Of a DNA stretch of 64,000 nt, positions 11,754 to 52,172 are shown piece by piece. The translations under genes and the position numbers were made by a program. Each line of letters opens with the position of its first letter. Position 1 is the stretch's first letter. Source of the stretch: an uncultured Rickettsiales bacterium (GTDB lineage Bacteria; Myxococcota_A; UBA796; UBA9615; CAYRNR01). The stretch is taken from NCBI GenBank assembly GCA_964639985.1, contig CAZXHG010000013.1, forward strand, positions 1,597 to 65,596, written 5' to 3'. The notes under the pieces were generated by a model that saw nothing but the letters and a program-made list of their open reading frames with translations, was not told the DNA's origin and made no database searches.

Positions 11754-11778
11754 GGTGCCCTCCAGGTTATGGACGCGG

Positions 11779-11807
11779 AGAATCGGGTACCGGGCACGGC
11801 ATGTCAA
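11779..11807 (-). promoter_or_regulatory. Putative sigma70 promoter (TTGACA-17-GATTCT)
   Basis: Consensus -35 at 11807-11802, 17-nt spacer, weak -10, upstream of ATG 11753. Confidence 0.4.
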
Positions 11808-11858
11808 GAGCCGCGGCACCTGTGGGACAATGGCGGGGACCTCGGAAGCGGAGGGTCG

Positions 11859-12533: not shown

Positions 12534-12571
12534 CGTCGCGGCCGCTCCACGCGCGCGCTACCATCGGACCG

Positions 12572-31673: not shown

Positions 31674-31691
31674 AGGACGAGGTTGCTGACG

Positions 31692-32021: not shown

Positions 32022-32038
32022 GAAGGGCTCGGGGGGTC

Positions 32039-38449: not shown

Positions 38450-39642
38450 AGGCCGTTCGGCGACACGTGGACCCCGTACTGATGACCTGTGTGCTGGGTC
38501 TCGTCGGACTCGGCATCGTCATGGTCTACTCGGCCGGCGGTGTGCGTGCGGCCGACGTGTACGGCCAGGAACACTTCTACCTGTCGCGGCAGGCCGCGTT
38601 CGCCTGTGTGGGGCTGCTCGCGATGGCGATCGCGGCACGCATCCCCTACCAGTTCTACCGGCGCTGGACGTACCCCATCCTGGGCACGGTGATGGTGATG
38701 CTGGTGCTGGTGTTCATCCCCGGGGTGGGCAGCACCATGGGTGGTGCCACCCGCTGGATCAACCTGCACTTCATCTACCTGCAGCCCTCGGAGCTGGCCA
38801 AGTTCGCGCTCGTGCTGTACCTGGCCTACTCGCTGGCCAAGAAGCAGGAGCACATCGACACGTTCTCGGTGGGCATCCTGCCCCACCTGATCGTCGCGGG
38901 ACTGGCCCTGGCGCTGATCCTGCTGGAGCCGGACTTCGGCACCACCGCGGTGCTGGCCTCGATCCTGTTCGCGATGATGTTCATCGCCGGGACCCGGATC
39001 CTGCACCTGTCGGCCATCTTCACCGTGGCCCTGCCCCTGGCCTTCGTGGTGCTGATCGGGGCGGAGTACCGGCGCCGCCGGTTGCTGGCGTTCCTCGATC
39101 CCTGGGCCGACCAGGCGGACACCGGCTTCCACATCATCCAGAGCTGGCTGGCGTTCCACCGCGGGGGGGCCTTCGGGGTCGGGCTCGGCGCGGGCACCCA
39201 GAAGCTGTTCTACCTGCCCGCAGCGCACACGGACTTCATCTTCAGCGTGGTAGGCGAGGAGCTGGGCCTGGTCGGTGTGACGCTGACCCTGGCCGCCTTC
39301 GCCGTGTTCATCTGGCGGGGGACCACGCTGTCGCGCCGAGCTCCCGACCTGTTCGGCCAGCTGCTGGGCACGGGCATCACCTTCATCATCGGCCTGCAGG
39401 CCGTGATCAACATGATGGTCGTCACCGGATTGCTGCCCACCAAGGGGTTGACCTTGCCCTTCGTCAGCTACGGAGGATCCTCCCTGGTGGCCTACCTGTT
39501 CATGGTGGGCGTGCTGCTCAACATCAGCTCCCAGGCCCTGGTGGGCAACCGCCGGGTTCGCGGGGGGCAACCGGACGAGCCGCAGCGGCGGTGGTCTCCG
39601 GTGGGCGGGGGCAAGGTGCCCGACCGGGGGGACTGGCTGTGA
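38446..39642 (+). CDS. ftsW: SEDS peptidoglycan polymerase FtsW
   Basis: GATRWI, QPSELAK, EPDFGT, LPAAHTDFIF, LPTKGLTLPFVSYGGSS. Confidence 0.97.
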   Translation: MKAVRRHVDPVLMTCVLGLVGLGIVMVYSAGGVRAADVYGQEHFYLSRQAAFACVGLLAMAIAARIPYQFYRRWTYPILGTVMVMLVLVFIPGVGSTMGGATRWINLHFIYLQPSELAKFALVLYLAYSLAKKQEHIDTFSVGILPHLIVAGLALALILLEPDFGTTAVLASILFAMMFIAGTRILHLSAIFTVALPLAFVVLIGAEYRRRRLLAFLDPWADQADTGFHIIQSWLAFHRGGAFGVGLGAGTQKLFYLPAAHTDFIFSVVGEELGLVGVTLTLAAFAVFIWRGTTLSRRAPDLFGQLLGTGITFIIGLQAVINMMVVTGLLPTKGLTLPFVSYGGSSLVAYLFMVGVLLNISSQALVGNRRVRGGQPDEPQRRWSPVGGGKVPDRGDWL

Positions 39643-39692
39643 CGACACTGCGACTGGACGCCCGCCAGCGAGCGGGCTGGAGGCGAGCATGA
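39639..39692 (+). pseudogene. 17-codon mini-ORF (MTTLRLDARQRAGWRRA) at the murG position; putative deletion scar
   Basis: GTG overlaps the ftsW TGA (GTGA) and its TGA overlaps the murC ATG (ATGA). The murG origin is inference. Confidence 0.45.
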
Positions 39693-41092
39693 AGGCGCTG
39701 TTCCGCAGGACCCGACGGGTCCACTTCGTCGGCATCGGCGGGATCGGCATGAGTGGGATCGCCGAGGTCCTGATCAACCTGGGCTACGAGGTGTCCGGGT
39801 CGGACCTGCGCGAGTCGCCGGTCACGCGCCAGCTCGTCTCCCAGGGCGCGGAGGTGGCCCTCGGCCACGCGGCGGACAACGTCGAGGGGTCCCACGTGGT
39901 GGTGATCAGCTCGGCGGTGAAGGACGACAACGTGGAGGTGGTGGCGGCCTACGACCGGGGGATCCCGGTGATCCCGAGGGCCGAGATGCTCGCCGAGCTG
40001 ATGCGCATGAAGCACGGCCTCGCCGTGGCCGGCAGCCACGGCAAGACCACGACCACGTCCATGCTGGCCGAGTGCCTGGCCGCGGCCAACATGGATCCCA
40101 CGGTGGTCGTGGGCGGTCGGCTCAACTCCATCGACAGCAACGCCAAGCTGGGGGAGGGGGACTTCCTGGTCGCCGAGGCCGACGAGAGCGACGGCTCCTT
40201 CCTCAAGCTGTCGCCCACGGTCGCGATCGTGACCAACATCGACCGCGAGCACATGGACCACTACCAGGACTTCGACACCCTGGTGCAGGCGTTCCTCGAC
40301 TTCATCAACAAGGTGCCGTTCTACGGCGCGGCCGTGATCTGCCTGGACCACCCCGTGATCCAGAAGATCATCCCCCGCATCCACAAGCGCTACATCACCT
40401 ACGGGCTGTCCTCGCAAGCCGAGGTGCACGCCGTGGACCTGCACTTCAGCGGCGGCACCAGCGTGTTCACGGTGATGCACAACGACCGATGGCTGGGCAA
40501 GGTCGAGCTGAACATGCCCGGCCGACACAACGTGCTCAACGCCCTGGCCGTGGTCGCGGCCAGCCTCGAGGTGGACATCCCGTTCAAGGTCGTGCGTCGT
40601 GCGTTGAACCAGTTCGGCGGCGTGTCGCGGCGATTCACGGAGCGTGGCAACGAGGGCGGCGTGCTGGTGATCGACGACTACGGGCATCACCCCGTGGAGA
40701 TCCGCTCCACCCTGCAGGCGGCCCGCGAGGGATTCGGCAGGCGCGTGATCTCCGTGTTCCAGCCGCACAGGTTCTCGCGCATACAGGACCTGCAGGATGA
40801 TTTCATGAGCGCATTCAACGACACGGATCTGCTCGTGGTGACCGACATCTACGCCGCCGGGGAGCGGCCGGTGGAGGGGGTCACCGGTCGGGGCCTGTAC
40901 CAGGGACTGCGGGAGCACGGTCACAAGAATGCGGTGTACCTGCCGGATCGTGCGGCGATCGTGGCCTACCTGCTGGACACGGTGGAGAAGGGCGACATCG
41001 TGATCACGCTGGGTGCGGGTGACGTGTACCGGGTCGGTGAGGAGCTGCTCGAAGGACTTCGCGAACGAGGTAGGGGTGGCGATGGCGGTTGA
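39689..41092 (+). CDS. murC: UDP-MurNAc--L-alanine ligase
   Basis: HFVGIGGIGMSG, GSHGKTTTT, EADESDGSF, DDYGHHP, QPHRF, GAGD. Confidence 0.98.
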   Translation: MKALFRRTRRVHFVGIGGIGMSGIAEVLINLGYEVSGSDLRESPVTRQLVSQGAEVALGHAADNVEGSHVVVISSAVKDDNVEVVAAYDRGIPVIPRAEMLAELMRMKHGLAVAGSHGKTTTTSMLAECLAAANMDPTVVVGGRLNSIDSNAKLGEGDFLVAEADESDGSFLKLSPTVAIVTNIDREHMDHYQDFDTLVQAFLDFINKVPFYGAAVICLDHPVIQKIIPRIHKRYITYGLSSQAEVHAVDLHFSGGTSVFTVMHNDRWLGKVELNMPGRHNVLNALAVVAASLEVDIPFKVVRRALNQFGGVSRRFTERGNEGGVLVIDDYGHHPVEIRSTLQAAREGFGRRVISVFQPHRFSRIQDLQDDFMSAFNDTDLLVVTDIYAAGERPVEGVTGRGLYQGLREHGHKNAVYLPDRAAIVAYLLDTVEKGDIVITLGAGDVYRVGEELLEGLRERGRGGDGG

Positions 41093-42062
41093 CCCCCGGC
41101 GACGCGGCCGGTCGCGCCAGCGGCTGGACGAGGCCCGGCGGCAGCAGCTCGCTGCGCTGGAGGCAGGGGACGTGCGCTTCGACGAGTCCATGTGCGCCTG
41201 GACCGCGTTCCGCAGCGGTGGCCCGGCCGAGGCCCTGGTGGCCGTGCAGGACGTTCCCGGGTGGCTGGCCCTGCTGCGCTGGTGTCGCGAGGAGCGCGTC
41301 CCGGTGTTCGTGCTCGGCGAGTCGCACGGCGTGCTGGTCGGGGACGGCGGCGTGGACGGGGTCGTGGTGGTCACCCGGGGCTGTCACACGGTACGCCCGG
41401 TGGACCGGGAGATCGACCCGGTCGAGATCCTGGCCGAGGTGCCCGCGGCCGTGATCGTGGCCGAGGCCGGGGCCACCCTGGGCAGGCTGGCGCAGGCGTC
41501 CGCGGACCTCGGCTTCGACGTGCCCTTCGGCGCCCCAGGGCAGGACGGCACCGTGGGGGGCGTGGTGCGCCGCTGCTTCGGCGAGCTGCGCGAACACGTG
41601 GTGGCCGTGGGCGTGCTCACGGATCGCGCCCGGATCCAGGTCCGGCTGGCGCGGGAGGTGGATCCCGACGTGGACGCGTTCCCCCTGCGTGTGAGGCAGG
41701 CCATCGCCTGGGTCGCGTTCGCGCTGCCCCGGTCCACGACCGGCGATCTGTTCGCCGGTGAAGAAATTACCACTGGTAGCAGGAAAACAGAGGAAAACGT
41801 GCGGAATGGTAGATTTCGCATGTTCCTGGATCCTCGGGAATCCACAGCCTCCGAGGTCCTGCAATCCGTGGACGTCAAGGGCATCCGCCTTCGTGATGTC
41901 ACGCTGGACGAGCAGGATCCCAACGTGGCCGTGAACCTGGGGGAGGGGTCGAGTCACGACCTCCAGCTGCTCGTCGCCTACCTGGCCGAGCGGGTTTCCA
42001 GTCGTGCTGGTGTGAAGCTGGAACCCGCCTATCGTGCGCGTGGTAAAAAAAGACAAACTTGA
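41082..42062 (+). CDS. MurB-like FAD-fold protein with degenerate active-site motifs
   Basis: Sits in the murB slot. WTAFRSGGPA, VLVGDGGVDGVV, AEAG, GTVGG, VKG...NVAVNLG...GVKLEP align to MurB, but the GxGSN, YRxS, GSxF and ExE motifs are altered. Confidence 0.8.
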   Translation: MAVDPRRRGRSRQRLDEARRQQLAALEAGDVRFDESMCAWTAFRSGGPAEALVAVQDVPGWLALLRWCREERVPVFVLGESHGVLVGDGGVDGVVVVTRGCHTVRPVDREIDPVEILAEVPAAVIVAEAGATLGRLAQASADLGFDVPFGAPGQDGTVGGVVRRCFGELREHVVAVGVLTDRARIQVRLAREVDPDVDAFPLRVRQAIAWVAFALPRSTTGDLFAGEEITTGSRKTEENVRNGRFRMFLDPRESTASEVLQSVDVKGIRLRDVTLDEQDPNVAVNLGEGSSHDLQLLVAYLAERVSSRAGVKLEPAYRARGKKRQT

Positions 42063-42074
42063 CGCGCGCGTAGG

Positions 42075-42103
42075 TTGACAATATTGGCGCAAACCCCCAA
42101 AAT
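42075..42103 (+). promoter_or_regulatory. Internal sigma70 promoter upstream of ddl (TTGACA-17-CAAAAT)
   Basis: -35 at 42075-42080, -10 at 42098-42103, in an AT-rich 86-bp gap. Confidence 0.65.
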
Positions 42104-42148
42104 CGACATTGCGGTGGTAGCTGTATTTCAGGCTGTACAGGCAGGCGG

Positions 42149-43090
42149 ATGCTGGATGCGTGGCGGGACAGGAAGATCGCGGTGCTCCTCGGCGGGCTGA
42201 GTGCCGAGCGCGACGTCTCGCTGGCCAGCGGTGCCGCTGTCGCATCGGCCCTGCGCGATCGTGGCTACGACATCGCCGAGATCGACGTGGGGCGGGACCT
42301 CTCCAGTCAACTCCACGACGCAGGCGCCGAGGCAGCCGTGATCCTGCTGCACGGCACGTTCGGCGAGGACGGCTGTGTTCAGGGCGTGCTCGAACTGCTC
42401 GACATCCCGTACTCCGGGTCGGGCGTGGCCGCATCCGCGCTGGCCATGGACAAGGTCCGGACCAAGCGACTGCTGGAGGCCAGCGGTCTGCCCGTCCCCC
42501 GGGACCGGGTGCTCACACCGGACGAGGCGCTCGCCGCAAACGTGCACATCCCGTTCGGCATCCCGCTGGTGGTCAAGCCCGCGGCCGAGGGCTCGAGCGT
42601 GGGGACGGCGGTGGTCACGGACCGCGCTGATCTCGCCGACGCGCTGACCGACGCGGCGCGCTACGGCCGGGTCCTGGTCGAGGAATTCGTGGCCGGCCCC
42701 GAGGTCACGGTGGCCATGCTGGACGGACGGCCGCTGCCGCCGGTGGAGATCCGACCCCACGACGGGTTCTACGACTACCGCAACAAGTACACCAAGGGGC
42801 GGACCGTCTACATCTGCCCCGCAGAGATCAGCACGGCCGCGACCGCGAGCATCCAGCGGATGGCCGTGAAGGCCTGTGACCTGGTGGGTGTGCGCGGCGT
42901 GGCGCGCGTGGACTTCATGCTCGGCGGTGGCGACGCCCCGCACCTGCTCGAGATCAACACCATCCCCGGCATGACCGAGCTGTCGCTGGTGCCCATGGCC
43001 GCCCGGGAGGCGGGCCTGTCCTTCGGTGACGTGGCCGAGCGTATGCTGGCCGGAGCGCGGTGCGAGCTGCGCGCCGCGGAGGCGGACTGA
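42149..43090 (+). CDS. ddl: D-alanine--D-alanine ligase
   Basis: GGLSAERDVSL, LHGTFGEDG, MDK, EGSS, FYDYRNKY (Tyr omega loop), EINTIPG. Confidence 0.97.
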   Translation: MLDAWRDRKIAVLLGGLSAERDVSLASGAAVASALRDRGYDIAEIDVGRDLSSQLHDAGAEAAVILLHGTFGEDGCVQGVLELLDIPYSGSGVAASALAMDKVRTKRLLEASGLPVPRDRVLTPDEALAANVHIPFGIPLVVKPAAEGSSVGTAVVTDRADLADALTDAARYGRVLVEEFVAGPEVTVAMLDGRPLPPVEIRPHDGFYDYRNKYTKGRTVYICPAEISTAATASIQRMAVKACDLVGVRGVARVDFMLGGGDAPHLLEINTIPGMTELSLVPMAAREAGLSFGDVAERMLAGARCELRAAEAD

Positions 43091-44508
43091 TGGGCGTGCT
43101 GGACACCCAGACGGTCCGTCGCACGGCCAACCGCAGGTTGGGGCGGGAGAAGGTCACCGAGGCGCCGCAGCGGAGCACGCGCGAGGCCCGGAGCCGACGT
43201 GCGCCCGACAGCGAGGTCCGTCCCCGACTGTCGAAGAAGCAGCCGTCCGACAGCTTCCGGGCGGTGTCCCCGGGTCGCGGATTCCCGCTCCAGGTGTGGT
43301 TCGAGGAGGCGCTGGCCGCCCTGATCGACGTCAGCCGACGCGCCGTGGGCGCGACCGGGTGGTTCGGTGCGGCGCTCAGCGCGGTGGTCGGGTCGGTGGC
43401 GTTCGCCCTGGTCTGGTCCGCGGCCACCTCCCTGTCCCTGGGCTGGCGCGCATTCCGCTGGAGCCTGGCGATGGCCCGCCGGGGGCTGGTGTTCCTGATG
43501 CCCCACCTGCGAACGGGCGTGGAGCATTCCGCACGGATCGGCAGGCAGGGCGCGATCCACTCGGCCCGGGCCGGTCGGCAGGTGGCCACGCAGACCCGCA
43601 CGCAGATCCGGACTCAGGCCGAGGACATGCGGGACGGGTTCCCGGACCTGCAGGAAGGCGCCGAGGCCGCGCAGCGGGCCTGGCTGCGGTTCCTCGGCTA
43701 TGCCGTGTACCAGCGCCGCGAGCTGCAGCGACAGGGATTCCTCGATCGGCCGGGCTGGCGCCAGGCGCTGAACGCGACGACCGTGGGCCTCGTGATCGGC
43801 GGGACCCTGCTGACCGTGACCGCGGCCGCGCTGTTCGGACCGCAGCTGCTGCGGGAGAGCGACGCCCTGTGTCTCCACGAGATCAGCGTGCGTGGCAACG
43901 ACATGGTGCCCGTCGGCGTGATCCTGGAGACCGCGGACGTGGATATCGGCGACAACCTCACCACGCTGGACCTCGCGGCCATCGCCGACGAGCTGTCCGC
44001 GTTGCCCTGGATCGAGTCCGCCACCCTGCGGCGCAGCTACCCGGACCGGCTGACGGTGCAGGTGGTCGAGCGCCAGCCCGCGCTGATGCTGGCCGACGAG
44101 CAGCTGTGGTTCGTGGACCACCTGGGCGAGGTGTTCAAGCCGGTGGACCCGACCGAGTGGACCGACCTGCCGGTGATCACTGGCATCGACGTGGACCAGC
44201 GCGCCGTGGATCCGGACGGCAGCCGGGAACGACTGCGTCGCGCCCTGGCGGTGATCGCGGCGATCGGCGAGTCACAGTCGCTGGAAGCCGACGACATCGG
44301 CGAGGTCGCCGTGGAGCGGGGTGGCCTGTACCGGGTGCGCCTGGTCGAGCAGCAGGTGGACCTCCGGCTGGCCGAGGACAACTACGAGACCGGGTTGCAG
44401 CGACTCGATTCCCTGCTGACCCGCGAGCTGATCGCCCTGGACCAGGTGGAGAGCCTGGACCTGGCGCTGCGCAACCAGGTGGTCGCGACCTGGAAGGCGG
44501 AGTTATGA
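43090..44508 (+). CDS. ftsQ: Cell division protein FtsQ with long N-terminal extension
   Basis: POTRA region (ISVRGN...LPWIESATLRRSYPDRLTVQVVERQP), DLPVITG, LDLALRNQVV; position between ddl and ftsA. Confidence 0.88.
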   Translation: MGVLDTQTVRRTANRRLGREKVTEAPQRSTREARSRRAPDSEVRPRLSKKQPSDSFRAVSPGRGFPLQVWFEEALAALIDVSRRAVGATGWFGAALSAVVGSVAFALVWSAATSLSLGWRAFRWSLAMARRGLVFLMPHLRTGVEHSARIGRQGAIHSARAGRQVATQTRTQIRTQAEDMRDGFPDLQEGAEAAQRAWLRFLGYAVYQRRELQRQGFLDRPGWRQALNATTVGLVIGGTLLTVTAAALFGPQLLRESDALCLHEISVRGNDMVPVGVILETADVDIGDNLTTLDLAAIADELSALPWIESATLRRSYPDRLTVQVVERQPALMLADEQLWFVDHLGEVFKPVDPTEWTDLPVITGIDVDQRAVDPDGSRERLRRALAVIAAIGESQSLEADDIGEVAVERGGLYRVRLVEQQVDLRLAEDNYETGLQRLDSLLTRELIALDQVESLDLALRNQVVATWKAEL

Positions 44509-45731
44509 GCAAACCCAACCTGATCGTCGGCCTCGACATCGGCACGACCAAGATCGCCGCCATCGTCGGGGAGCAGACGGACCATGGACTGGAGATCGTG
44601 GGGATCGGCACGCACCCGAGCAACGGGCTGCGCAAGGGCGTGGTGATCAACATCGAGTCCACGGTCGACTCCATCCAGAAGGCCGTGGAGGAGGCCGAGC
44701 TGATGGCGGGCGCGGAGATCAGCTCCGTGTTCGTGGGCATCGCGGGCGGTCACATCAAGTCGCTCAACTCCCAGGGCACGGTCGCGATCAAGGACCACGA
44801 GGTCACGGGGCTGGACGTGAGCCGGGTGCTGGACACGGCCCAGGCCGTGGCCATCCCGATGGATCGGGAGCTGATCCACATCATCCCGCAGGAGTACATC
44901 GTCGACGATCTCGAAGGGATCAAGGATCCCCGCGGCATGCGCGGCGTGCGGCTGTCGGCCAAGGTGCACATCGTCACCGGCGCGGTCACGTCGGCCCAGA
45001 ACATCGTCAACTGCTGTAACAAGTCCAGCCTCAACGTGCGTGATATCGTGCTGGAGCAGCTCGCGGCCAGCGAGGCCGCGCTGACCCCGGACGAGCGTGA
45101 CCTCGGCGTGATGCTGGTGGACATCGGCGGCGGGACCACGGACATCGCCATCTTCGTGGACGGGGCCGTGGTGCACACCAGCGTGCTGGCCCTGGGCGGC
45201 GACCACATCACCCACGACATCGCCTACGGGTTGCGCACCCCAGCGACCGAGGCGGAGCGGATCAAGCGCAAGCACGGCTGCGCGCTGGCCGCGATGGTGG
45301 ACGAGGACACCAGCTTCGAGGTGGAGTCCGTGGGCGGGTCGAGGACCCGCACGACCAACAAGACGATCCTGGCGGAGATCATCGAGCCCCGGGTCACGGA
45401 GATCTTCTCCCTGGTCCACCAGGAGCTGGTACGCACTGGTCTGGAGGATCACCTCCCGGCCGGCGTGGTGCTGACCGGCGGCTCGGTCATCCTGCCGGGC
45501 ATGCCCGAGCTCGCCGAGCGAGTGTTCGGCATGCCCGCGCGCAGGGGCAGTCCCCGGGAGACCGGCGGCCTCACCGATGTCATCAACAGCCCGATCTTCG
45601 CGACGGGCGTGGGGCTGGTGAAGTACGGCATGGCGCATGACACCGAGGAGTCGAAGTCGAACGGCGGCTCGCCGTCGATCTACGACTGGATTCGTCGCAC
45701 CATGCAGGGTTGGGTGAAGAAGGCTGTATAG
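44505..45731 (+). CDS. ftsA: Cell division protein FtsA
   Basis: GLDIGTTK, GLRKGVVINI, VDIGGGTTD, AERIK, LTGG, FATGVGL. Confidence 0.98.
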   Translation: MSKPNLIVGLDIGTTKIAAIVGEQTDHGLEIVGIGTHPSNGLRKGVVINIESTVDSIQKAVEEAELMAGAEISSVFVGIAGGHIKSLNSQGTVAIKDHEVTGLDVSRVLDTAQAVAIPMDRELIHIIPQEYIVDDLEGIKDPRGMRGVRLSAKVHIVTGAVTSAQNIVNCCNKSSLNVRDIVLEQLAASEAALTPDERDLGVMLVDIGGGTTDIAIFVDGAVVHTSVLALGGDHITHDIAYGLRTPATEAERIKRKHGCALAAMVDEDTSFEVESVGGSRTRTTNKTILAEIIEPRVTEIFSLVHQELVRTGLEDHLPAGVVLTGGSVILPGMPELAERVFGMPARRGSPRETGGLTDVINSPIFATGVGLVKYGMAHDTEESKSNGGSPSIYDWIRRTMQGWVKKAV

Positions 45732-45790
45732 CTGGAGCTGTAGCAGAGAACAACGCTGACGCACGAGCGAGAACGAGAGCGGGGAACGAG

Positions 45791-47050
45791 ATGACGATTT
45801 CTTTTGCGGACATGCCAGAGGTGAGGCCTCCCACCGATTGCGACGACGTGGTCGTGCTCAAGGTGGTGGGCGTGGGCGGTGGCGGCGGCAACGCGGTCAA
45901 CACGATGGTGGAGTCCGGGCTGAGGGGCGCGGAGTTCATCGCCACCAACACCGACCAGCAGGCGCTGCGAGAGCTGAAGGTCACGCAGAAGGTGCAGCTG
46001 GGGTACGGCATCACCAACGGGCTCGGTGCGGGCGCGCGGCCCGAGGTGGGACGCCAGGCGGCCGAGGAGAGTGTCGAGGAGATCAAGGGGCTGCTGGCGG
46101 GCTCCAACATGGTCTTCGTGACCGCGGGCATGGGCGGCGGTACAGGCACCGGCGCGGCGCCGATCATCGCCCGAGCGGCCAAGGAGGTCGGCGCGCTGAC
46201 CGTGGGCGTGGTCACCAAGCCGTTCAACTTCGAGGGCAAGAAGCGACGCCGGCACGCCGACCAGGGCATCCGCGAGCTGCGCGAGGTGGTGGACACGCTG
46301 ATCGTGATCCCCAACCAGCGGCTGCTGAGCATCGCGGGCGAGAACACCTCGATGAAGGACGCCTTCCGCAAGGCCGACGAGGTGCTGCTGCACGCGGTCA
46401 AGGGGATCGTGGAGCTGATCCAGGTCAAGGGCATCATCAACGTGGACTTCGCGGACGTGCGTACCGTGATGAGCAACCAGGGCCTGGCGCTGATGGGTAT
46501 CGGTTCGGCCAACGGCAAGATGAAGGCCGTGGAGGCCGCGCAGCGCGCCATCTCCAGCCCGCTGCTGGACGAGATCAGCATCACGGGCGCCACCGGCATC
46601 CTGATCAACATCACGGGCAACAGCGACCTCAAGCTCTACGAGGTCAACGAGGCGGCCACGTTGATCCAGGAGGAGGCGGACGAGGACGCGGAGATCATCT
46701 TCGGCTGGGTCATCGACGACACCATGGAGGACGAGGTCCAGGTGACGGTGATCGCCACGGGCTTCGAGGCCGAGGAGCAGGTGGTCAATCCGAGCGCGCC
46801 GCCGCTGAGCGGCGTGTTCCGGCCGGTGCCGCCGCGCACTCAGGCGGTCACACCGTGGGCCGGCGCCAGCGATCCGCTGGACGTGCCGACCGCGGTGCGA
46901 GAGCGGAAGATCACGCAGGAGTACGACAAGCCGCCCCAGGAGGATTCGAGGCTCCTGGAGCGTGACCGGCAGCAGGTGCTGGAACAGCAGGTGCCGCTGG
47001 ACATGGACGAACTGGATCGACCGGCCTACATGCGAAAGATCGCGGACTAG
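45791..47050 (+). CDS. ftsZ: Cell division protein FtsZ
   Basis: GVGGGGGNAVN, GLGAGA, GMGGGTGTG, NVDFADV, C-terminal LDRPAYMRK. Confidence 0.99.
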   Translation: MTISFADMPEVRPPTDCDDVVVLKVVGVGGGGGNAVNTMVESGLRGAEFIATNTDQQALRELKVTQKVQLGYGITNGLGAGARPEVGRQAAEESVEEIKGLLAGSNMVFVTAGMGGGTGTGAAPIIARAAKEVGALTVGVVTKPFNFEGKKRRRHADQGIRELREVVDTLIVIPNQRLLSIAGENTSMKDAFRKADEVLLHAVKGIVELIQVKGIINVDFADVRTVMSNQGLALMGIGSANGKMKAVEAAQRAISSPLLDEISITGATGILINITGNSDLKLYEVNEAATLIQEEADEDAEIIFGWVIDDTMEDEVQVTVIATGFEAEEQVVNPSAPPLSGVFRPVPPRTQAVTPWAGASDPLDVPTAVRERKITQEYDKPPQEDSRLLERDRQQVLEQQVPLDMDELDRPAYMRKIAD

Positions 47051-47210
47051 GACGGTCGGCCAGTAGCATTTGATTTCTGGATCGGGTGGCCAGGCAGAGG
47101 CGGAGCGGGACAAGGGACCCCGGGGAGCAGGTAGATGCTGACGCTGAAGTTGCCGGGCGCAAAGCAGGAGCTGAGATTGACGTAGAAGCTGAGGTTGCCC
47201 CCCGAACCAG

Positions 47211-47249
47211 GGGAAGGACGCTGCGCCGGGCGTCCTTCCCTTTTTATTT
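47211..47249 (+). terminator. Rho-independent terminator of the dcw operon
   Basis: GGGAAGGACGC / GCGTCCTTCCC stem followed by TTTTTATTT. Confidence 0.9.
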
Positions 47250-47261
47250 GTTACATCCGGA

Positions 47262-48194
47262 TCACTCCACGAACGTCAGGTACACGGACCCCCACGTCGT
47301 CTGCGAGCGCAGCTCCACGCACCCCCGGTCGGTCATCACCAGGTCCTGGGTGTAGCGCCGCGTGGTGGCCGAGACCGGGTTGAGCTCGTCGAACACGTCC
47401 ATCGCCCAGATGGCCTGGATCAGGGATGCGGGCACGACCACCGTGCCGAGCGCGTCGTCCACGTCGCACACCAGCTCGGCGGGCAATGCGCCGTGCTGGT
47501 CGCTCTTGTAGATCGTGAAGCGGAACCGCGCGCCGGAGACCTCCCCTGGTGACCAGTCGCAGACGATATCCTCGTGGGCGGTCATGGTCAGCTCCTCGCA
47601 GATCGTCCCCAGAGGGGCGACACCGAGGGTGGTGAGCTCGAACGAGTCGAAATCCGAGCTGCCGGACGCGGCCACGGTGAGGAGGTCTCCGGGTGTGTAG
47701 AGATCGGGGAAGTCCGCGCCGCCGATGTAGACACCGTTGTCGATCTCGTCGAGGGTGAGGGGTGGGTCGGTACCGGTCACCGCCACCGCGCCCACGGAGA
47801 TCACCGCGGGCATGGTCCGGCACTCGTCCCCGAAGCCGCAGTACTCGTCCTCGTCGCATTCAGGCTCGCAGTGGGGAGGGTGATCCCAGCCGTACAGGAC
47901 GCAGTCGCCCTCCCGGTCGAGTTCGTCGAGGATCCAGGGCTCGGGCCCGTCCTCGACCATCCCGCCCACCCAGGTCTCGGGTGGGTTGTCGTCATCCACG
48001 GTCAGGTGGAAGTAGCCCCAGGTGGTGTAGCGGTCACACGCCTCCACGGGCGCGGTCGTGTCGTCGTCGTCGTCGGCCGTGTCGTCGTCGGCCGTGTCGT
48101 CGTCGGCCGCGTCGTCGTCGTCCCCAGCCGTGGTTCCGGCCGGGCATCCGAGGGCGAGCGCGAGGAGCAGCAGCGGGTACGGCGCACGGTGCAT
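47262..48194 (-). CDS. Hypothetical lipoprotein with poly-Asp linker and Cys-rich motif
   Basis: GGAGG RBS; LALGC lipobox; DDDTA repeats; CEPECDEDEYCGFGDEC. Confidence 0.8.
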   Translation of the reverse strand: MHRAPYPLLLLALALGCPAGTTAGDDDDAADDDTADDDTADDDDDTTAPVEACDRYTTWGYFHLTVDDDNPPETWVGGMVEDGPEPWILDELDREGDCVLYGWDHPPHCEPECDEDEYCGFGDECRTMPAVISVGAVAVTGTDPPLTLDEIDNGVYIGGADFPDLYTPGDLLTVAASGSSDFDSFELTTLGVAPLGTICEELTMTAHEDIVCDWSPGEVSGARFRFTIYKSDQHGALPAELVCDVDDALGTVVVPASLIQAIWAMDVFDELNPVSATTRRYTQDLVMTDRGCVELRSQTTWGSVYLTFVE

Positions 48195-48239
48195 GGGTCC
48201 TCCTGCGAGACGCACGGTGGGGGATGCGAAGAGACCGCT

Positions 48240-48450
48240 ACCCCGGGGCTACTCCTCGTCAGACGAACCGGGTGGTTCCGCCGACAGTATCTGGGCGTTT
48301 CGGCAGCAGGAAGAAGGCCCACAGTGTCTGCTTCCACTCCGTCACGGGATTTCCTCCATCGCCTCGTACCCGGGTGAGGATAGCACCCTGTTCGGAGAAG
48401 TGGTGGGCCCGGCACCGCGCACCGGCTACCCTCCATTTCCCCGCGGTGCA
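48240..48450 (-). ncRNA. Candidate structured RNA at the 3' end of the tRNA array, containing a hammerhead-like core
   Basis: Stems GCACCGCG/CGCGGTGC, GGCCCAC/GTGGGCC and GGGTG/CACCC; CCGAAACGCC...GGCG...CTGACGAGG. No family match established. Confidence 0.45.
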
Positions 48451-48526
48451 TGGCAGGCGAGGAAGGACTCGAACCTCCAGCCAACGGTTTTGGAGACCGC
48501 TGCTCTACCATTGGAGCTACTCGCCC
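48451..48526 (-). tRNA. trnW: tRNA-Trp (CCA)
   Basis: Cloverleaf; anticodon loop CT-CCA-AA; G73; encoded CCA end. Confidence 0.95.
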
Positions 48527-48535
48527 GCGATGAGC

Positions 48536-48620
48536 TGGTGGGTCAGGCAGGAATCGAACCTGCAAGCCAGCGGCGGCGGATCTACAGTCCGCTGGGCTCA
48601 CCACACTGCCCAACTGACCC
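48536..48620 (-). tRNA. trnY: tRNA-Tyr (GTA)
   Basis: Loop CT-GTA-GA; variable arm; encoded CCA. Confidence 0.92.
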
Positions 48621-48635
48621 ACGAAAAGGTGAAAC

Positions 48636-48715
48636 TGGTGGGGACGGTCCGGTTCGAACGGACGACCTCCTGGGCCACGACCAGGCGCTCTGACCAGAGA
48701 CTGAGCTACGTCCCC
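48636..48715 (-). tRNA. trnH: tRNA-His (GTG), atypical (C33, A73, no G-1)
   Basis: Loop TC-GTG-GC; acceptor GGGGACG/CGTCCCC; enlarged D-loop; encoded CCA. Confidence 0.8.
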
Positions 48716-48716
48716 G

Positions 48717-48791
48717 TGGCGACTCCCCGGAGATTCGAACTCCGAACCACGCGGTTAACAGCCGCGCGCTCAGCCGTTGAGCTAGGGAGTC
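48717..48791 (-). tRNA. trnN: tRNA-Asn (GTT)
   Basis: Loop CT-GTT-AA; G73; encoded CCA. Confidence 0.93.
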
Positions 48792-48797
48792 ATTTCC

Positions 48798-48874
48798 TGG
48801 TACCGCTGCCCGGACTCGAACCGGGAGCCTCCTGTGTATCAGACAGACGCTCTCGACCATTGAGCTACAGCGGT
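48798..48874 (-). tRNA. trnI: tRNA-Ile (GAT)
   Basis: Loop CT-GAT-AC; A73; encoded CCA. Confidence 0.92.
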
Positions 48875-48879
48875 ACGTG

Positions 48880-48954
48880 TGGAGGCGGCACCCGGACTCG
48901 AACCGGGGATCGAGGAGTTGCAGTCCTCTGCCTTTCCATCTTGGCCATGCCACC
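48880..48954 (-). tRNA. trnC: tRNA-Cys (GCA)
   Basis: Loop CT-GCA-AC; U73; encoded CCA. Confidence 0.93.
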
Positions 48955-48967
48955 TCGGGTACCTTCC

Positions 48968-49042
48968 TGGTCACAGGGGGAGGACTCGAACCTCGCGCTG
49001 GTCCGCTCATGAGACGGACAGGCACATCCCGTGCGCCCTGCG
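48968..49042 (-). tRNA. Atypical tRNA with CAT anticodon (Met/Ile2, possibly degenerate)
   Basis: Loop CT-CAT-GA; T-loop TTCGAGT; shortened D-arm without U8/A14; C-C mismatch at the base of the T-stem; encoded CCA. Confidence 0.6.
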
Positions 49043-49045
49043 ATC

Positions 49046-49121
49046 TGGAGCGGGTAGCCGGACTCGAACCGGCCGCCGTCTGGTTGGAAGCCAGGCGCTC
49101 TACCTGATGAGCTATACCCGC
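49046..49121 (-). tRNA. trnG: tRNA-Gly (TCC)
   Basis: Loop CT-TCC-AA; U73; encoded CCA. Confidence 0.93.
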
Positions 49122-49131
49122 CCGTGGATGA

Positions 49132-49218
49132 TGGTGCCGGAGGCGGGAGTCGAACCCGCACGACCACGAGGGCCACTGCGTCCTGAGCGCAGCGTGTCTG
49201 CCATTTCACCACCCCGGC
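49132..49218 (-). tRNA. trnL: tRNA-Leu (CAG)
   Basis: Loop CT-CAG-GA; long variable arm; encoded CCA. Confidence 0.95.
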
Positions 49219-49242
49219 AATGCCCCCTGTCGGGGGCTGAAC

Positions 49243-49318
49243 TGGAGCGCCCACCGGGAGTCGAACCCGGAATCTACGGATTAAGAGTCCGCCGCTCTAC
49301 CAGCTGAGCCATGGGCGC
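49243..49318 (-). tRNA. trnK: tRNA-Lys (CTT), U73
   Basis: Loop CT-CTT-AA; acceptor GCGCCCA/TGGGCGC; discriminator T; encoded CCA. Confidence 0.92.
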
Positions 49319-49319
49319 G

Positions 49320-49402
49320 TGGCGGGGGTGGGAGTCGAACCCACCTGCCCTCTCGGGACTGGGATATGAGCCCAGTGACCGGCCGTTGGTTCCATCCCCG
49401 CG
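49320..49402 (-). tRNA. Initiator-like tRNA-fMet (CAT) with a long variable arm
   Basis: 5' CGCGGGG, C1-C72 mismatch, GGG/CCC in the anticodon stem, loop CT-CAT-AT, 14-nt variable region CCC-GAGA-GGG; no encoded CCA. Confidence 0.75.
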
Positions 49403-49442
49403 TCATTTTCCTGTTGCACGTCACCTCGGGACTCCGGGCGGG

Positions 49443-49518
49443 TGGCGGGAGCGACGGGGCTCGAACCCGCTGCCTCCGGCTCGACAGGCCGGCGTCCTTC
49501 CTCCAGGACCTCGCCCCC
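49443..49518 (-). tRNA. trnD: tRNA-Asp (GTC)
   Basis: Loop CT-GTC-GA; G73; encoded CCA; first gene of the array. Confidence 0.92.
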
Positions 49519-49531
49519 GTAGCCACCCGGA

Positions 49532-49572
49532 CGTTCGTGTGACGCGCGATGAACGGTGTATTCGGTTGTCAA
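49532..49572 (-). promoter_or_regulatory. Putative tRNA-array promoter: consensus -35 with non-consensus -10 flanked by an inverted repeat
   Basis: TTGACA at 49572-49567; the 17-nt-spaced hexamer is TCGCGC; inverted repeat CGTTCGT (49532-38) / ATGAACG (49549-55). Confidence 0.4.
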
Positions 49573-49601
49573 AGTCCGCGTCGCCCGTGCCGGCCGGAAC
49601 G

Positions 49602-49634
49602 AAAAAAGCCGGACTGCCTTTCGGCGGCCCGGCT
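49602..49634 (-). terminator. Rho-independent terminator upstream of the tRNA array
   Basis: AGCCGGGCCGCC-GAAA-GGCAGTCCGGCT followed by a T run on the minus strand. Confidence 0.88.
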
Positions 49635-49660
49635 CCTGGTCATCGTCTGTGTCGATTCGC

Positions 49661-49792
49661 CTAGCCGGGCCCTGCCTCCTCGAGGTCGCAACCGTCGATC
49701 AGGTGGACGTAGGCCATGTTCCACCCGAACGCACTGCTCCCCGTGGCCTTTGCAGGCATCGGGTTCTCGGCAGAGGCGGTCGGTGATGACAT
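49661..49792 (-). CDS. Small ORF, 43 aa (MSSPTASAENPMPAKATGSSAFGWNMAYVHLIDGCDLEEAGPG)
   Basis: GGAGGAG RBS about 10 nt upstream; terminator 27 nt downstream of the stop. Confidence 0.55.
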   Translation of the reverse strand: MSSPTASAENPMPAKATGSSAFGWNMAYVHLIDGCDLEEAGPG

Positions 49793-49898
49793 GGAAATCG
49801 GTCTCCTCCAGCCCCACGCGGGGCCCGGTTCTGCCGGTACATTCAGGCCTTTTCTCGCGCCACAGGAACGAGAGGAGGAGGAGGGGCGGGGGAGGGGC

Positions 49899-50516
49899 TC
49901 AGCCGAGCCCGTCCCAGCGGTCCAGTCGGACCTGGATGGCCGTCTCCGGTTCACCGAGGAAGGTCGCGAGGTCGGCGAGCGTGTACTCGTGGTCCCACAC
50001 ACCCTGGTACACGCGGGCGTCCACGATGCCGTCGTTGGACGCGTCCGCGAACAGCTCGTCGAGCGTGGGACGGTGGTCGAACCGCGGTGTCTCGCCGGTG
50101 GACGTGCCGAAGGTGCGGATGTTCTCCTCACGCGTCTGGCGGGCCCGAACGTGGCGCAGGCGGGGGAGGGAGGAGAAGTCGCCCGACAGCAGGTCGGCCG
50201 CGTACCGCGCCGTGAGGTCGGCGAGGCGATCGAGCACGTCGTCCTCGTCTTCACCGGAATGCGAGACGAGCTCGCCCTCACGCTGGGGGGCCCGGTCGCC
50301 GACCACCTGCTTGAGCCCGAACTGTTCGCCGCCCACGGGCCCGATGGTGACATAGGGATCACAGCCAGCGCCGAGCATCACCCTGAGCTCCACGGTGGTG
50401 CTGATGAAACAGACGACAGCTTCGCGTTGCCAGATCCGAGGTTCAACGGGCCGCAGCCCATGGTCGGCCGCGACTGCCGTGAACCTCTTCGTGGCTTCAC
50501 CTGCGCTCCGTTGCAT
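49899..50516 (-). CDS. Hypothetical protein with probable C-terminal helix-turn-helix
   Basis: RPTLDELF...YTLADLATFLG.PETAIQVRL resembles the C-terminal HTH of REP-associated tyrosine transposases, but no HUH catalytic motif is visible. Confidence 0.6.
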   Translation of the reverse strand: MQRSAGEATKRFTAVAADHGLRPVEPRIWQREAVVCFISTTVELRVMLGAGCDPYVTIGPVGGEQFGLKQVVGDRAPQREGELVSHSGEDEDDVLDRLADLTARYAADLLSGDFSSLPRLRHVRARQTREENIRTFGTSTGETPRFDHRPTLDELFADASNDGIVDARVYQGVWDHEYTLADLATFLGEPETAIQVRLDRWDGLG

Positions 50517-50565
50517 GGTCTCGTTTCCTGACAGCTCCCGAACGCGAGGGCACAGGTCCTGTGAC

Positions 50566-50593
50566 TACCATTTCGCGAGCGGCCGAAATGGTA
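50566..50593. repeat. Perfect 10-bp inverted repeat TACCATTTCG-N8-CGAAATGGTA
   Basis: Read directly; 50 bp upstream of ATG 50516; no U-tract. Confidence 0.6.
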
Positions 50594-50651
50594 ATGGAAA
50601 GTGCCTGACCCCTCTCTCAGTACATTCAGGCCGTCCTCATGAAAGTGCTCT

Positions 50652-52172
50652 TCAGCGGCATCGCCGCGCCACCCACCACACACCCATGCCCACCACGACC
50701 AGCCAGCCACGCGGCGTGGCTTCGGCCACATCGCAGCTGCAATCATCGTCCACGATCACCACCCCCGTATCATCGTCCCCACCCGAGTCGTCATCATCCC
50801 CCGCGTTCGTGTCGTCGTCGTCATCTCCGCCGGTCACCACATCGACCCAGATCGGGCTGGTCCACACCTGCTCCAGGTCGGACTCCCCGCTGTCGTCGCA
50901 GACCACGCCCGCATCCGCCCACCAGGCTCCGCCGTCCACGTGCACGATCGCGTAGGCGACCACCGTGTCCCCCTCGTCGAGGACCATGGACAGGGTGTAG
51001 CGCCCGACCTCCAGTTCCTCCATGGCCGTACGCGAGAACTCCGGCCGCACCAGGTCGGCCCCATTCACGTGGGCCGCGTCCGCCGCCGACACCTGGATCG
51101 CGAACGTCACCTCGGTCCCGGCCTCGAACTCGATCTCCTCGCCGAAGCGCGCGACATCCACCCCATCGACCGTCACACGGAAATCCACCGGCAGCCTCGG
51201 CCCGGACGTGGCCTGGCCGCGCCGATCCCGTAGAGCCTCGTAGATCGCCGTGCGGTCCAGCGGCTCCCCCTCGGGCATCACCACCACGGTCAAACCACCC
51301 CCGTAGTTGACCGCGTTGTCCGCGAACCGAGGGTCGATGTCGCACACCGAACCAGGCCGGGTGTCGTGGGAGTCCGTCCCCGAGATGATGCCCATGCGCA
51401 GGCCGTAGTGGTCCGGTGACAGCGCCCGGTCCACGGTCGAATCCGGTCGCTCCGCGTTCGGGTCCACCGGATCGAAGTACCCGTCGTACGAGGGCGACGT
51501 GGAGTTGCCGTGCTCGCTGTAGTTCTCCACCACCGGGTTGTACGCCAGGTCCGCGCACATCCAGTCGGCGGCCCCCGGCGGCCGGATCGCGGGGTGGTGC
51601 GGGATCAGCAGCAGCGGGCCGAGGTCGCCCTCGAGGTCCCCCAGCAGGTCGAATATCTCGGGACAATCATCCGTGGTGAACGGCGGGTCGCCCGAGTCCC
51701 CGACCACGTCCAGCAGGCGGAGGTCCTGCAGGTCGTGCTCGTCCCCGAAGAAGTACAGGTTGCGGTGGTCGCGGATGTCGCCGCTGCCGTCCCAGAACCA
51801 CAGCTCCACCCCGGGCACGGTGACGAACCCGCCCTCCGGATCGTCCGCGGCCAGCAGGTCGACCACCTGCTGGTCCCAGTCGCCTGCGTGCCACACCGCG
51901 TGGATCCCGTTGCCGTGTTCGGTCAGCGACAGGAAGTCCAGGTCCCAGGTCTCCCGCGCGTCCTCGATCACGCTGGCGTACGGGCCGCAGGGGTAGCCGT
52001 CAGGGCAGACGTTGCCGGTGTCGGTCGAGTAGCCGTCGCGGGACAGCCCGGTGTGGGCGTGCAGGTCACCGTAGTAGTAGTCGAAGCCGGCGTGGTTGAT
52101 CGGGGACGCCCACCCATCGCGTTCGACAGCCGCCAGGCCGACGAGTACGCATGCGACCGCCCACCCGCGCAC
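50652..52172 (-). CDS. DUF3604/PHP-like metallohydrolase with MYXO-CTERM-like anchor
   Basis: YYYGDLHAHT, SLTEH, IPHHP, ENYSEHG, SGTDSHD; C-terminal DDDCSC + TM + RR. Confidence 0.82.
   Translation of the reverse strand: MRGWAVACVLVGLAAVERDGWASPINHAGFDYYYGDLHAHTGLSRDGYSTDTGNVCPDGYPCGPYASVIEDARETWDLDFLSLTEHGNGIHAVWHAGDWDQQVVDLLAADDPEGGFVTVPGVELWFWDGSGDIRDHRNLYFFGDEHDLQDLRLLDVVGDSGDPPFTTDDCPEIFDLLGDLEGDLGPLLLIPHHPAIRPPGAADWMCADLAYNPVVENYSEHGNSTSPSYDGYFDPVDPNAERPDSTVDRALSPDHYGLRMGIISGTDSHDTRPGSVCDIDPRFADNAVNYGGGLTVVVMPEGEPLDRTAIYEALRDRRGQATSGPRLPVDFRVTVDGVDVARFGEEIEFEAGTEVTFAIQVSAADAAHVNGADLVRPEFSRTAMEELEVGRYTLSMVLDEGDTVVAYAIVHVDGGAWWADAGVVCDDSGESDLEQVWTSPIWVDVVTGGDDDDDTNAGDDDDSGGDDDTGVVIVDDDCSCDVAEATPRGWLVVVGMGVWWVARRCR

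Follow-up and report, generated by a model that had tools for sequence, protein, structure and literature searches.

The 64-kb stretch of DNA analysed here (hereafter, the window; contig CAZXHG010000013.1) comes from an uncultured marine bacterium, probably a member of Myxococcota, and carries, between ftsZ and a gene for a DUF3604-like protein, a compact array of 12 co-oriented tRNA or tRNA-like genes on the minus strand (48451-49518, delineated with ARAGORN, Rfam and folding by hand). We consider it probable that this array is a lineage-specific tRNA operon, most likely supernumerary, and a short relative of the horizontally acquired tRNA operons known as L-arrays or tRNA arrays. An earlier note, made from the sequence alone, had taken the array to be accessory, and this view is indirectly supported by the site, which holds no array in the closest relatives, by a sister lineage whose version of the array lacks the Asp and Tyr genes, and by the non-canonical features of the His gene, the Asp gene and both CAU genes.

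Most of the dense acquired arrays known so far are those of Firmicutes, cyanobacteria, mycobacteria, Acidithiobacillus and phages. Here, a compact array is fixed in the core chromosome, next to ftsZ, of a Myxococcota-like marine lineage, with no mobile-element scars, and the existence of two array-bearing lineages provides a natural comparison that reveals which members are kept and which are expendable. The array itself most likely belongs to the already known acquired kind, with a long-armed initiator-type tRNA as its distinctive feature; this by-product of the analysis is perhaps more important than the array.

Composition of the array and the codons it serves

At its default settings, ARAGORN calls ten tRNAs, all on the minus strand and all inside 48451-49518, and zero further tRNAs in the rest of the 64 kb. 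The Rfam model RF00005 likewise detects ten tRNAs (50-72 bits), which do not form the identical set: tRNA-His (48636-48715) scores 58 bits with Rfam and is seen by ARAGORN at the relaxed threshold only, the 84-nucleotide (nt) CAU gene (49319-49402) is called by ARAGORN by default and is not recovered by RF00005 (E<=10), and the twelfth gene, Met-like with a CAU anticodon (48968-49042), is missed by Rfam and found only by relaxed ARAGORN and hand folding. The two callers, of which ARAGORN had been proposed as a check in the earlier note, support the 12-gene array, with the two CAU genes and tRNA-His being less easily called than the rest. In their minus-strand order, which exactly reproduces the order given in that note, the genes are:

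49443-49518, minus strand: tRNA-Asp (GUC), 76 nt, G73, CCA encoded; ARAGORN default and relaxed, Rfam 50.0 bits
49319-49402, minus strand: initiator-type (fMet-like) tRNA (CAU) with a long variable arm, 84 nt, CCA not encoded; ARAGORN default
49243-49318, minus strand: tRNA-Lys (CUU), 76 nt, U73, CCA encoded, 0 nt from the fMet-like gene; ARAGORN, Rfam 71.6 bits
49132-49218, minus strand: tRNA-Leu (CAG), class II, 87 nt, A73, CCA encoded; ARAGORN, Rfam 53.0 bits
49046-49121, minus strand: tRNA-Gly (UCC), 76 nt, U73, CCA encoded, C27xA43; ARAGORN, Rfam 64.6 bits
48968-49042, minus strand: Met-like tRNA (CAU), 75 nt, A73, CCA encoded; relaxed ARAGORN and hand fold
48880-48954, minus strand: tRNA-Cys (GCA), 75 nt, U73, CCA encoded; ARAGORN, Rfam 56.3 bits
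48798-48874, minus strand: tRNA-Ile (GAU), 77 nt, A73, CCA encoded; ARAGORN, Rfam 70.8 bits
48717-48791, minus strand: tRNA-Asn (GUU), 75 nt, G73, CCA encoded; ARAGORN, Rfam 61.7 bits
48636-48715, minus strand: tRNA-His (GUG), 80 nt, CCA encoded, 1 nt past tRNA-Asn; Rfam 58.2 bits, relaxed ARAGORN
48536-48620, minus strand: tRNA-Tyr (GUA), class II, 85 nt, A73, G37, CCA encoded; ARAGORN, Rfam 56.3 bits
48451-48526, minus strand: tRNA-Trp (CCA), 76 nt, G73, CCA encoded, last gene of the array; ARAGORN, Rfam 62.3 bits

With 12 genes in 1,068 bp, the array has a density of 11.2 tRNA genes per kb, and the spacers, described earlier as short, measure 40, 0, 24, 10, 3-5, 13, 5, 6, 1, 15 and 9 nt in array order (0-40 nt overall). 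The claim that CCA is encoded in 11 of the 12 genes is confirmed, the lone exception being the fMet-like gene, the 3' end of which reads ...CCCCGC-C-A-C and is followed immediately by G1 of tRNA-Lys. All four GUN anticodons (Asp, Asn, His and Tyr) are present within the array, as had also been claimed. All members adopt the standard 7/5 acceptor/T-stem layout, and their anticodons agree with their apparent identities.

Eight of the genes (Lys, Leu, Gly, Cys, Ile, Asn, Tyr and Trp) are ordinary-looking. Most of their discriminators are those usual in bacteria, namely, A73 in Leu, Ile and Tyr, U73 in Cys and Gly, and G73 in Asn and Trp; Lys has U73. Leu and Tyr have the bacterial class II layout, and the oddities are minor (C27xA43 in Gly, G1.U72 in Trp and G37 in Tyr). 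Given its canonical U73 and GCA anticodon, tRNA-Cys should be chargeable by the cysteinyl-tRNA synthetase encoded in the window (24317-25729, 23 kb from the array).

The other four genes depart from the norm. In tRNA-Asp, the U8 and A14 that are found in almost all tRNAs are reciprocally swapped for A8 and U14, and the anticodon loop is CUGUCGA (G37, A38). The tRNA-His gene lacks an encoded G-1 (the spacer base is C); A73 takes the place of C73, and C33 that of U33, which is nearly universal, and the gene also has G37 and a D loop of 12 nt. In the Met-like tRNA, the D stem of 3 bp encloses a 5-nt loop, C49xC65 is a mismatch, and the anticodon loop reads CUCAUGA (G37); this tRNA may have either Met or Ile2 identity; its kinship with the short CAU tRNAs of phage clusters was considered and rejected because there is no specific similarity. 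The fourth gene is the fMet-like one, which is treated separately below.

The codon usage computed over 36 genes of the window is strongly skewed, with AAG accounting for 98% of the Lys codons, CUG for 70% of Leu, GAC for 85%, AUC for 97%, AAC for 95%, CAC for 93%, UAC for 94% and UGC for 79% of their respective sets. These major host codons are the ones best read by the CUU, CAG, GUC, GAU, GUU, GUG, GUA and GCA anticodons of the array, and Gly-UCC alone serves minority codons (GGA and GGG, 31%). Thus, the array does not compensate for rare codons, and if it is of the acquired type, such arrays can be matched to the codons of the host instead.

The array site among relatives and in a sister lineage

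Among the FtsZ-anchored loci from species-representative genomes, none of the 40 has a tRNA array beside ftsZ, and in three, a single tRNA gene lies several kb off. In the locus of the best FtsZ relative (L001; FtsZ 74%, MurC 81%), synteny is kept on both sides of the site, and the space between the flanks (11254-14631) is taken up by 3.4 kb of unrelated open reading frames (ORFs) with no tRNA. In the contig that encodes the closest non-self homologue of the DUF3604 protein (P0002; 68% identity), the ends of ftsZ and of the gene for this homologue are separated by 200 bp, too little for the array segment to fit in, and two further relatives (L129 and L132) have no tRNA nearby. With 200 bp in P0002, 3.4 kb in L001 and 3.6 kb including the array in the window, the ftsZ-DUF3604 junction is a variable spot.

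The same locus is found in a diverged relative of the window species that is represented in two brine-metagenome runs (X5 and X6), with flanks 84-95% identical to those of the window. The contigs of this sister lineage are of low depth (about 4-5x), and each key joint and substitution is present in the two independent runs. Two joints distinguish the sister version: 48529 is connected to 48635 with 9 nt in between, so that tRNA-Tyr is absent, and 49406 is connected to 49603 with 24 nt in between, so that tRNA-Asp and about 110 nt upstream of it are absent, which places the fMet-like gene about 30 nt from the U-run of the terminator of the preceding gene. The remaining 10 array genes are present. 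The differences between the window and the sister lineage, gene by gene, are:

fMet-like: 0/84
Lys: 5/76, namely, 3 D-loop changes, 1 variable-loop change and G27.U43 to G-C
His: 2/80, both in the D loop, with C33 kept
Asn: 7/75, among them A37G and a change of G to U that disrupts the last T-stem pair; 2:70 stays paired as G.U
Ile: 3/77, in loops only
Cys: 2/75, one in the D loop, and U3.G69 to C-G
Met-like: 5/75, including G2.U70 to G-C and the loop CUCAUGA to CUCAUAU
Trp: about 6/76 (six changes and one gap over 48446-48529)

Summed over these eight tRNAs, the divergence of the tRNA bodies is 4.9% (30/618 nt), compared with 13-16% for the adjacent non-tRNA DNA (34/252, 31/194 and 55/353). 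Insertions and deletions sit in the spacers, the changes in His, Ile, Lys and Cys fall into the D, T and variable loops, and three G.U pairs are replaced by G-C (Lys 27:43, Cys 3:69 and Met-like 2:70). The probability of zero changes in the 84 nt of the fMet-like gene at 5-13% divergence is about 0.01 to 1e-5. The low divergence of the tRNA bodies, together with the changes that keep pairs intact, indicates that selection holds the set, and the fMet-like gene most strongly. Since Asp accounts for 8% of the codons in the window genes, the absence of Asp and Tyr from the sister array is hard to square with these being the sole genes for the two tRNAs and is expected of a redundant set. The emphasis that the earlier note put on the queuosine-family tRNAs is not supported: two of the four GUN tRNAs are missing in the sister lineage, and C33 of the His gene abolishes the U33-G34-U35 motif needed by bacterial Tgt.

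For nine marine metagenome contigs of the same species (the longest of 71 kb, from at least 4 samples), the identity to the window is 99.83% or higher, and for eight of these it is 99.98% or higher, a near-identity that leaves no informative population variation. Judging from the loci and contigs compared, the array-bearing segment is confined to a small clade that consists of the window species and one sister lineage and is thus lineage-specific.

The long-armed initiator-type tRNA

Bacterial initiator tRNAs are marked by a C1xA72 mismatch, A73 and three G:C pairs in the anticodon stem and, to our knowledge, every described initiator tRNA is class I. The fMet-like gene of the array has the acceptor CGCGGGG/CCCCGC, as in bacterial initiators, with a C1xC72 mismatch and A73, and the anticodon arm CUGGG-CUCAUAU-CCCAG, with three G:C pairs (G29-31:C39-41) and U38. 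Its variable region comprises 14 nt and forms the helix CCC-GAGA-GGG, which is present in the minimum-energy structure. In the D region, AUGGAACCAACGGCCGGUCA, no stem longer than 3 bp (ACC/GGU) can be drawn, and there are additional linker bases.

Viral contigs in IMG/VR were scanned for the anticodon arm of this 84-nt gene combined with a T arm at class II distance. With the U38 loop (CUCAUAU), 24 viral contigs match, and in 22 of these ARAGORN calls an 80-86-nt tRNA-Met (CAU), always within a phage tRNA cluster; with the A38 loop, 61 further contigs match, and 58 of the 62 matches are called as tRNA-Met of 80-90 nt. The resulting family of long-armed CAU tRNAs spans 85 viral contigs (L093-L116 and L135-L194) and at least 67 distinct sequences. 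An alignment of 12 phage members supports the cloverleaf with a helical variable arm, with compensatory changes in 16 of 23 pairs. Of the 67 distinct sequences, 43 are mismatched at position 1:72, 20 have A-U or U-A there, 2 have G.U, and 2 have G-C or C-G; A73 is the discriminator in 53, and positions 2-7 are mostly GCGGGG-like. These features point to bacterial initiator tRNA independently of the search, in contrast to the GGG:CCC feature of the anticodon stem, which the search pattern imposed.

The window gene shares with the phage family the CAU anticodon, GGG:CCC, C1xC72, A73, the acceptor sequence and the long arm. It does not share the D arm, which in the phage family is of class II style (GAGUGGUCAAUC-like) and from which the window copy departs, with low posterior probability when aligned to the model. 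In a search with a covariance model built from 10 phage members, the fMet-like gene is the best match in the window, over its full length (E = 3e-15), and its score of 56.3 bits is to be set against the 52-66 bits that the same model gives to ordinary class II Ser and Leu tRNAs of the phage loci; the score thus reflects class II architecture and not specific kinship, and the case for kinship rests on the shared features. The exact 22-mer of the variable arm has 0 matches in viral contigs, and a BLAST comparison of the 84-nt tRNAs with GenBank phages gives no match. Matches to the other irregular members are likewise lacking or spurious: among the viral contigs, the anticodon-arm 17-mer of tRNA-His with C33 has 11 matches, none in a tRNA and hence due to chance, the anticodon arm of the Met-like tRNA has 0 matches, and the D-arm 20-mer of tRNA-Asp has a single chance match within a coding region.

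The occurrence of the long-armed initiator type otherwise in phage tRNA clusters suggests a phage or mobile-element ancestry. A full-text literature search returned no description of long-armed initiator-type tRNAs, which is not proof of novelty, and this is possibly an undescribed tRNA type. Taking the sequence features together, we entertain, as a tentative proposal that we would not yet back, the idea that the 84-nt gene functions and belongs to a class of long-armed initiators, apparently undescribed, that is common in phage clusters and of which one copy is fixed here in a bacterial chromosome, without change between the two lineages. The extra arm and the altered anticodon loop might allow initiation when the canonical initiator is depleted or cleaved. 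If functional and indeed undescribed, the long-armed class breaks the rule that initiators are class I; if functional, it opens an experimental way into the question of how translation initiation is secured by phages and, in this case, by a bacterium.

Origin, expression and setting of the array

L-arrays are long, horizontally spread tRNA operons, such as the trn operon on the delta plasmid of Anabaena PCC 7120, which is induced under impaired translation (PMC8421152). Like L-arrays, the window array lies on one strand, has very short spacers that comply with a co-transcribed unit, is non-periodic and sporadic in distribution, with relatives that lack it, includes irregular tRNAs and apparently provides isodecoder redundancy rather than new anticodons. 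Unlike L-arrays, it consists of 12 genes, compared with up to 43, and resides in the core chromosome; 12 genes is nevertheless long for Proteobacteria-like phyla, where stand-alone tRNA genes prevail. Measured against the definition of a tRNA array unit (at least 20 tRNA genes and at least 2 per kb; PMC4758250), the density of 11.2 genes per kb is sufficient and the number of genes is too low. The Mycobacterium tRNA arrays, acquired redundant sets for which an anti-defence role has been proposed (PMC5966550, PMC12803027), are comparable in being read as acquired redundant sets, except that the window array occurs in another phylum and is not part of a plasmid, integrative and conjugative element (ICE) or prophage. 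Phage tRNA clusters (those of T4, T5 and mycobacteriophage C1, and viral contigs L093-L194) resemble it in being dense one-per-amino-acid sets with non-canonical members and the long-armed initiator type and differ in that the window has no phage genes in 64 kb and its anticodons suit a host with 70% G+C; no near-identical tRNA was found in viral contigs or GenBank phages. Environmental bacteria carry irregular polycistronic allo-tRNAs (8/4 and 9/3), and a group of alphaproteobacteria and their phages have a tRNA-His with A73 and no G-1 (PMC5389517). The window tRNA-His resembles the latter in these acceptor features only, and the array differs from the allo-tRNAs in its 7/5 layout, anticodons that match the identities and lack of toxin-antitoxin neighbours. 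Finally, like housekeeping operons (rRNA-operon-linked clusters of Firmicutes and A-arrays grown by accretion), the array is co-oriented, with encoded CCA and host-fitting anticodons, and unlike these, it has no rRNA nearby, is non-periodic, is absent in relatives and includes non-canonical His and initiator genes. Shared ancestry with the arrays of the Anabaena delta plasmid, C. difficile and Variovorax was rejected, given that the two-gene matches pair non-cognate tRNAs and the gene orders differ.

Several observations weigh against an acquired, supernumerary operon. The gene order, which the earlier note had suggested comparing with known arrays, is shared with none of those in Anabaena, Variovorax and C. 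difficile; GenBank phages and plasmids contain no close DNA relative, the BLAST matches being to single tRNAs at 72-80% identity. The signs of horizontal spread typical of L-arrays (plasmid, ICE, phage or neighbouring homing endonuclease) are absent among the ORFs scanned in the 64 kb, where there are also no integrase, transposase, HNH endonuclease, phage or plasmid genes, and no att-like repeats surround the 3.6-kb segment. In the DNA surveyed, the 64 kb of the window, no second copy of any of these isoacceptors was seen, and the expression of the array is predicted from the layout of its genes. The difference in Asp and Tyr may be a loss in the sister lineage or a gain in the window species, as two lineages fit both. 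The match between anticodons and major codons fits a host-adapted accessory set or a housekeeping set and is the strongest point of the latter, which is fitted equally by the mostly canonical identity elements, the encoded CCA and the location in the core chromosome.

In the scenario that we nevertheless favour, the history of which rests on the comparison of relatives, the array arrived between ftsZ and the DUF3604 gene, together with two orphan genes (ORFans), in a small clade and has been inherited vertically since, with the set under selection and single members expendable (in the sister lineage, Asp and Tyr lost and Asn damaged). It would add to or back up the major isoacceptors and would also provide variants, namely, the long-armed initiator type and a tRNA-His without G-1, C73 and U33, so that the cell would have a tRNA supply that is redundant, under selection and descended from a mobile element, probably a phage. 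The set may be in constant use, or it may be called on under translational stress or upon attack on the canonical tRNAs.

A specific version of this scenario, compatible with it, is that the array is a counter-measure set, with variants that would escape tRNA-cleaving toxins or defence nucleases or be induced when translation is impaired. We regard this version as unlikely, without dismissing it. The departures in the anticodon loops (G37 in Asp, His, Tyr and the Met-like tRNA, C33 in His and U38 in the initiator type) are suggestive only; U38 adjoins what we take to be the site at which enteric VapC cuts tRNAfMet. The initiator type is shared with phage clusters. There are precedents for such a role (PMC8421152, PMC10264068, PMC12803027), with nuclease-insensitive variants proposed both for phage tRNAs and for mycobacterial arrays (PMC10264068, PMC12803027). 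However, no defence, nuclease or toxin-antitoxin gene is found among the ORFs scanned in the 64 kb, the classic targets of PrrC and colicin D are not what an array with Lys-CUU and without Arg tRNAs would replace, and the GUN set is incomplete in the sister lineage.

That the array is an ordinary housekeeping cluster, i.e., a constitutive operon with the only or main genes of the cell for these isoacceptors, is improbable in our estimate. Apart from the fit to the dominant codons, this explanation draws on the canonical discriminator bases of 9-10 of the 12 genes and their encoded CCA, on the core site, beside the division and cell wall (dcw) cluster and with no mobile-element genes among the ORFs scanned, on the identity of the array in same-species contigs from at least 4 samples, and on the conservation of the tRNA bodies relative to the flanks. 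Yet, the site is empty or otherwise filled in all relatives outside the two-lineage clade, which implies that the ancestor had these tRNA genes elsewhere, and the sister array lacks Asp and Tyr and has a damaged T stem in Asn. A sole His gene would be one without G-1, C73 and U33, a sole initiator would carry an extra arm and an aberrant D arm, and Ile-GAU, which ordinarily comes from rRNA operons, is part of the array.

Least probable of all is a decaying relic, an unused and eroding piece of a phage- or plasmid-derived tRNA cluster, which could account for the irregular members (the two CAU tRNAs missed by Rfam, His with C33 and Asp with A8), the gene loss and disruptive T-stem change in the sister lineage, the lack of a convincing promoter in the scan and of RNA evidence, but not for tRNA bodies about 3 times more conserved than the adjacent DNA with indels in the spacers, for several changes that restore Watson-Crick pairs, or for the 84/84 identity of the oddest member between lineages whose flanks differ by about 13%.

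Two features upstream of the first tRNA gene bear on transcription:

49602-49633, minus strand: intrinsic terminator, stem 49608-49633 with 11 positions, one C.A mismatch, GAAA loop and U6; kept in the sister lineage
49567-49572, minus strand: candidate -35 element, TTGACA, 49 nt upstream of tRNA-Asp, putative

The terminator upstream of the array, reported in the earlier note, is a real hairpin with a U6 run (-26.7 kcal/mol, z = -3.98) that ends the transcript of the genes for the 205- and 43-amino-acid (aa) products; a simple terminator scanner missed the 49608-49633 hairpin because of the C.A mismatch. There is no terminator inside the array, and a bidirectional terminator (47209-47242) lies between ftsZ and the gene for a 310-aa ORFan. 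The 256 nt between the array and the latter gene contain no U-run terminator, so that transcription may run on into it. A scan of the locus for sigma-70 promoters found none, and there is no convincing -10 element near TTGACA; the motif CTTTGACAA is present upstream of the first tRNA both in the window and in the sister lineage, where an own promoter is no likelier than read-through from the upstream gene.

From this layout, we would expect a single polycistronic precursor, read leftwards, that starts just past the terminator of the preceding gene, possibly near TTGACA. RNase P would cut every 5' end and, at the Asn/His and fMet-like/Lys junctions, the same cut would free the upstream 3' end; 3' exonucleolytic trimming would halt at the encoded CCA in 11 genes, and the CCA of the fMet-like tRNA would be finished by the CCA-adding enzyme. 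Directly past tRNA-Trp, there is a hairpin (48380-48452; -37.1 kcal/mol, z = -3.0) with no U-run, which might serve in processing or stabilising the precursor at its 3' end; conservation in the sister lineage does not extend to the intergenic DNA around it.

Over 5 kb, ftsZ included, the cover in metatranscriptomes from the same study is zero, so that the organism itself is not covered. In metatranscriptome run X7, a 251-nt contig corresponds to 49292-49406, that is, to the whole fMet-like gene with 4 nt upstream and the first 27 nt of tRNA-Lys, with 2 differences. This contig diverges from the window at both ends, and the upstream break coincides with the sister breakpoint at 49406; it may be a precursor from a further array variant, an assembly chimera or DNA carry-over. 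Otherwise, run X7 contains only short or foreign tRNA matches to the array.

The window has a G+C content of 70%. Assignment of the host to Myxococcota is suggested by the named homologues of the DUF3604 protein, which belong to this phylum, and by the FtsZ relatives, which come from Myxococcota- or Bdellovibrionota-like metagenome-assembled genomes. On the plus strand, the dcw cluster mraZ-rsmH-ftsL-ftsI-murE-murF-murD-ftsW-murC-murB-ddl-ftsQ-ftsA-ftsZ spans 30236-47050, with ftsZ ending at 47050. The other flank, on the minus strand, comprises two DUF3604-like genes, an OPT transporter, an ABC/FtsX pair, a radical-SAM gene and RNase E/G. The variable segment of 3.6 kb that separates ftsZ from the first DUF3604 gene (47050-50652) carries a 205-aa ORFan, a 43-aa ORF with the terminator, the array and the 310-aa ORFan, each of them on the minus strand:

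49899-50516, minus strand: 205-aa ORFan, upstream of the array in the variable segment; member of a multi-copy family
47262-48194, minus strand: 310-aa lipoprotein-like ORFan with the lipobox LALALGC and Asp-rich repeats, co-directional with and 256 nt downstream of the array

The 310-aa ORFan has no Pfam, PADLOC or PHROGs match and no homologue in L001. PHROGs gives no match for the flanking ORFans, and the Pfam annotation of the neighbours is cellular. The earlier statement that the array is accompanied by neither rRNA nor an integrase is borne out, with none detected by Rfam in the 64 kb (where it reports tRNAs only) or among the ORFs scanned, which also include no members of defence, nuclease or toxin-antitoxin families.

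Some further features of the locus were observed. In the dcw cluster, as also in L081, murF and murD overlap, the ftsW-murC gap is 46 bp, and mraY and murG, normally inside this cluster, are not part of it. The 205-aa family is multi-copy in the same metagenomes, with three tandem paralogues in L431 and members beside a Fic-domain gene in L433 and L434; a link of this family to tRNA arrays was rejected, as the homologues (L431, L433-L436) occur in unrelated contexts and never beside tRNAs. The GAC/GTC-rich repeats at 48053-48139 and 50700-50850, which encode the Asp runs of the 310-aa lipoprotein and of the DUF3604 C-terminus, draw many foreign reads and thereby create spurious joints in read mapping. 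A 20-nt direct repeat, TCTGCCGGTACATTCAGGCC / TCTCTCAGTACATTCAGGCC, at 49830-49849 and 50613-50632, upstream of the 43-aa ORF and the 205-aa gene, may be a shared promoter or operator element.

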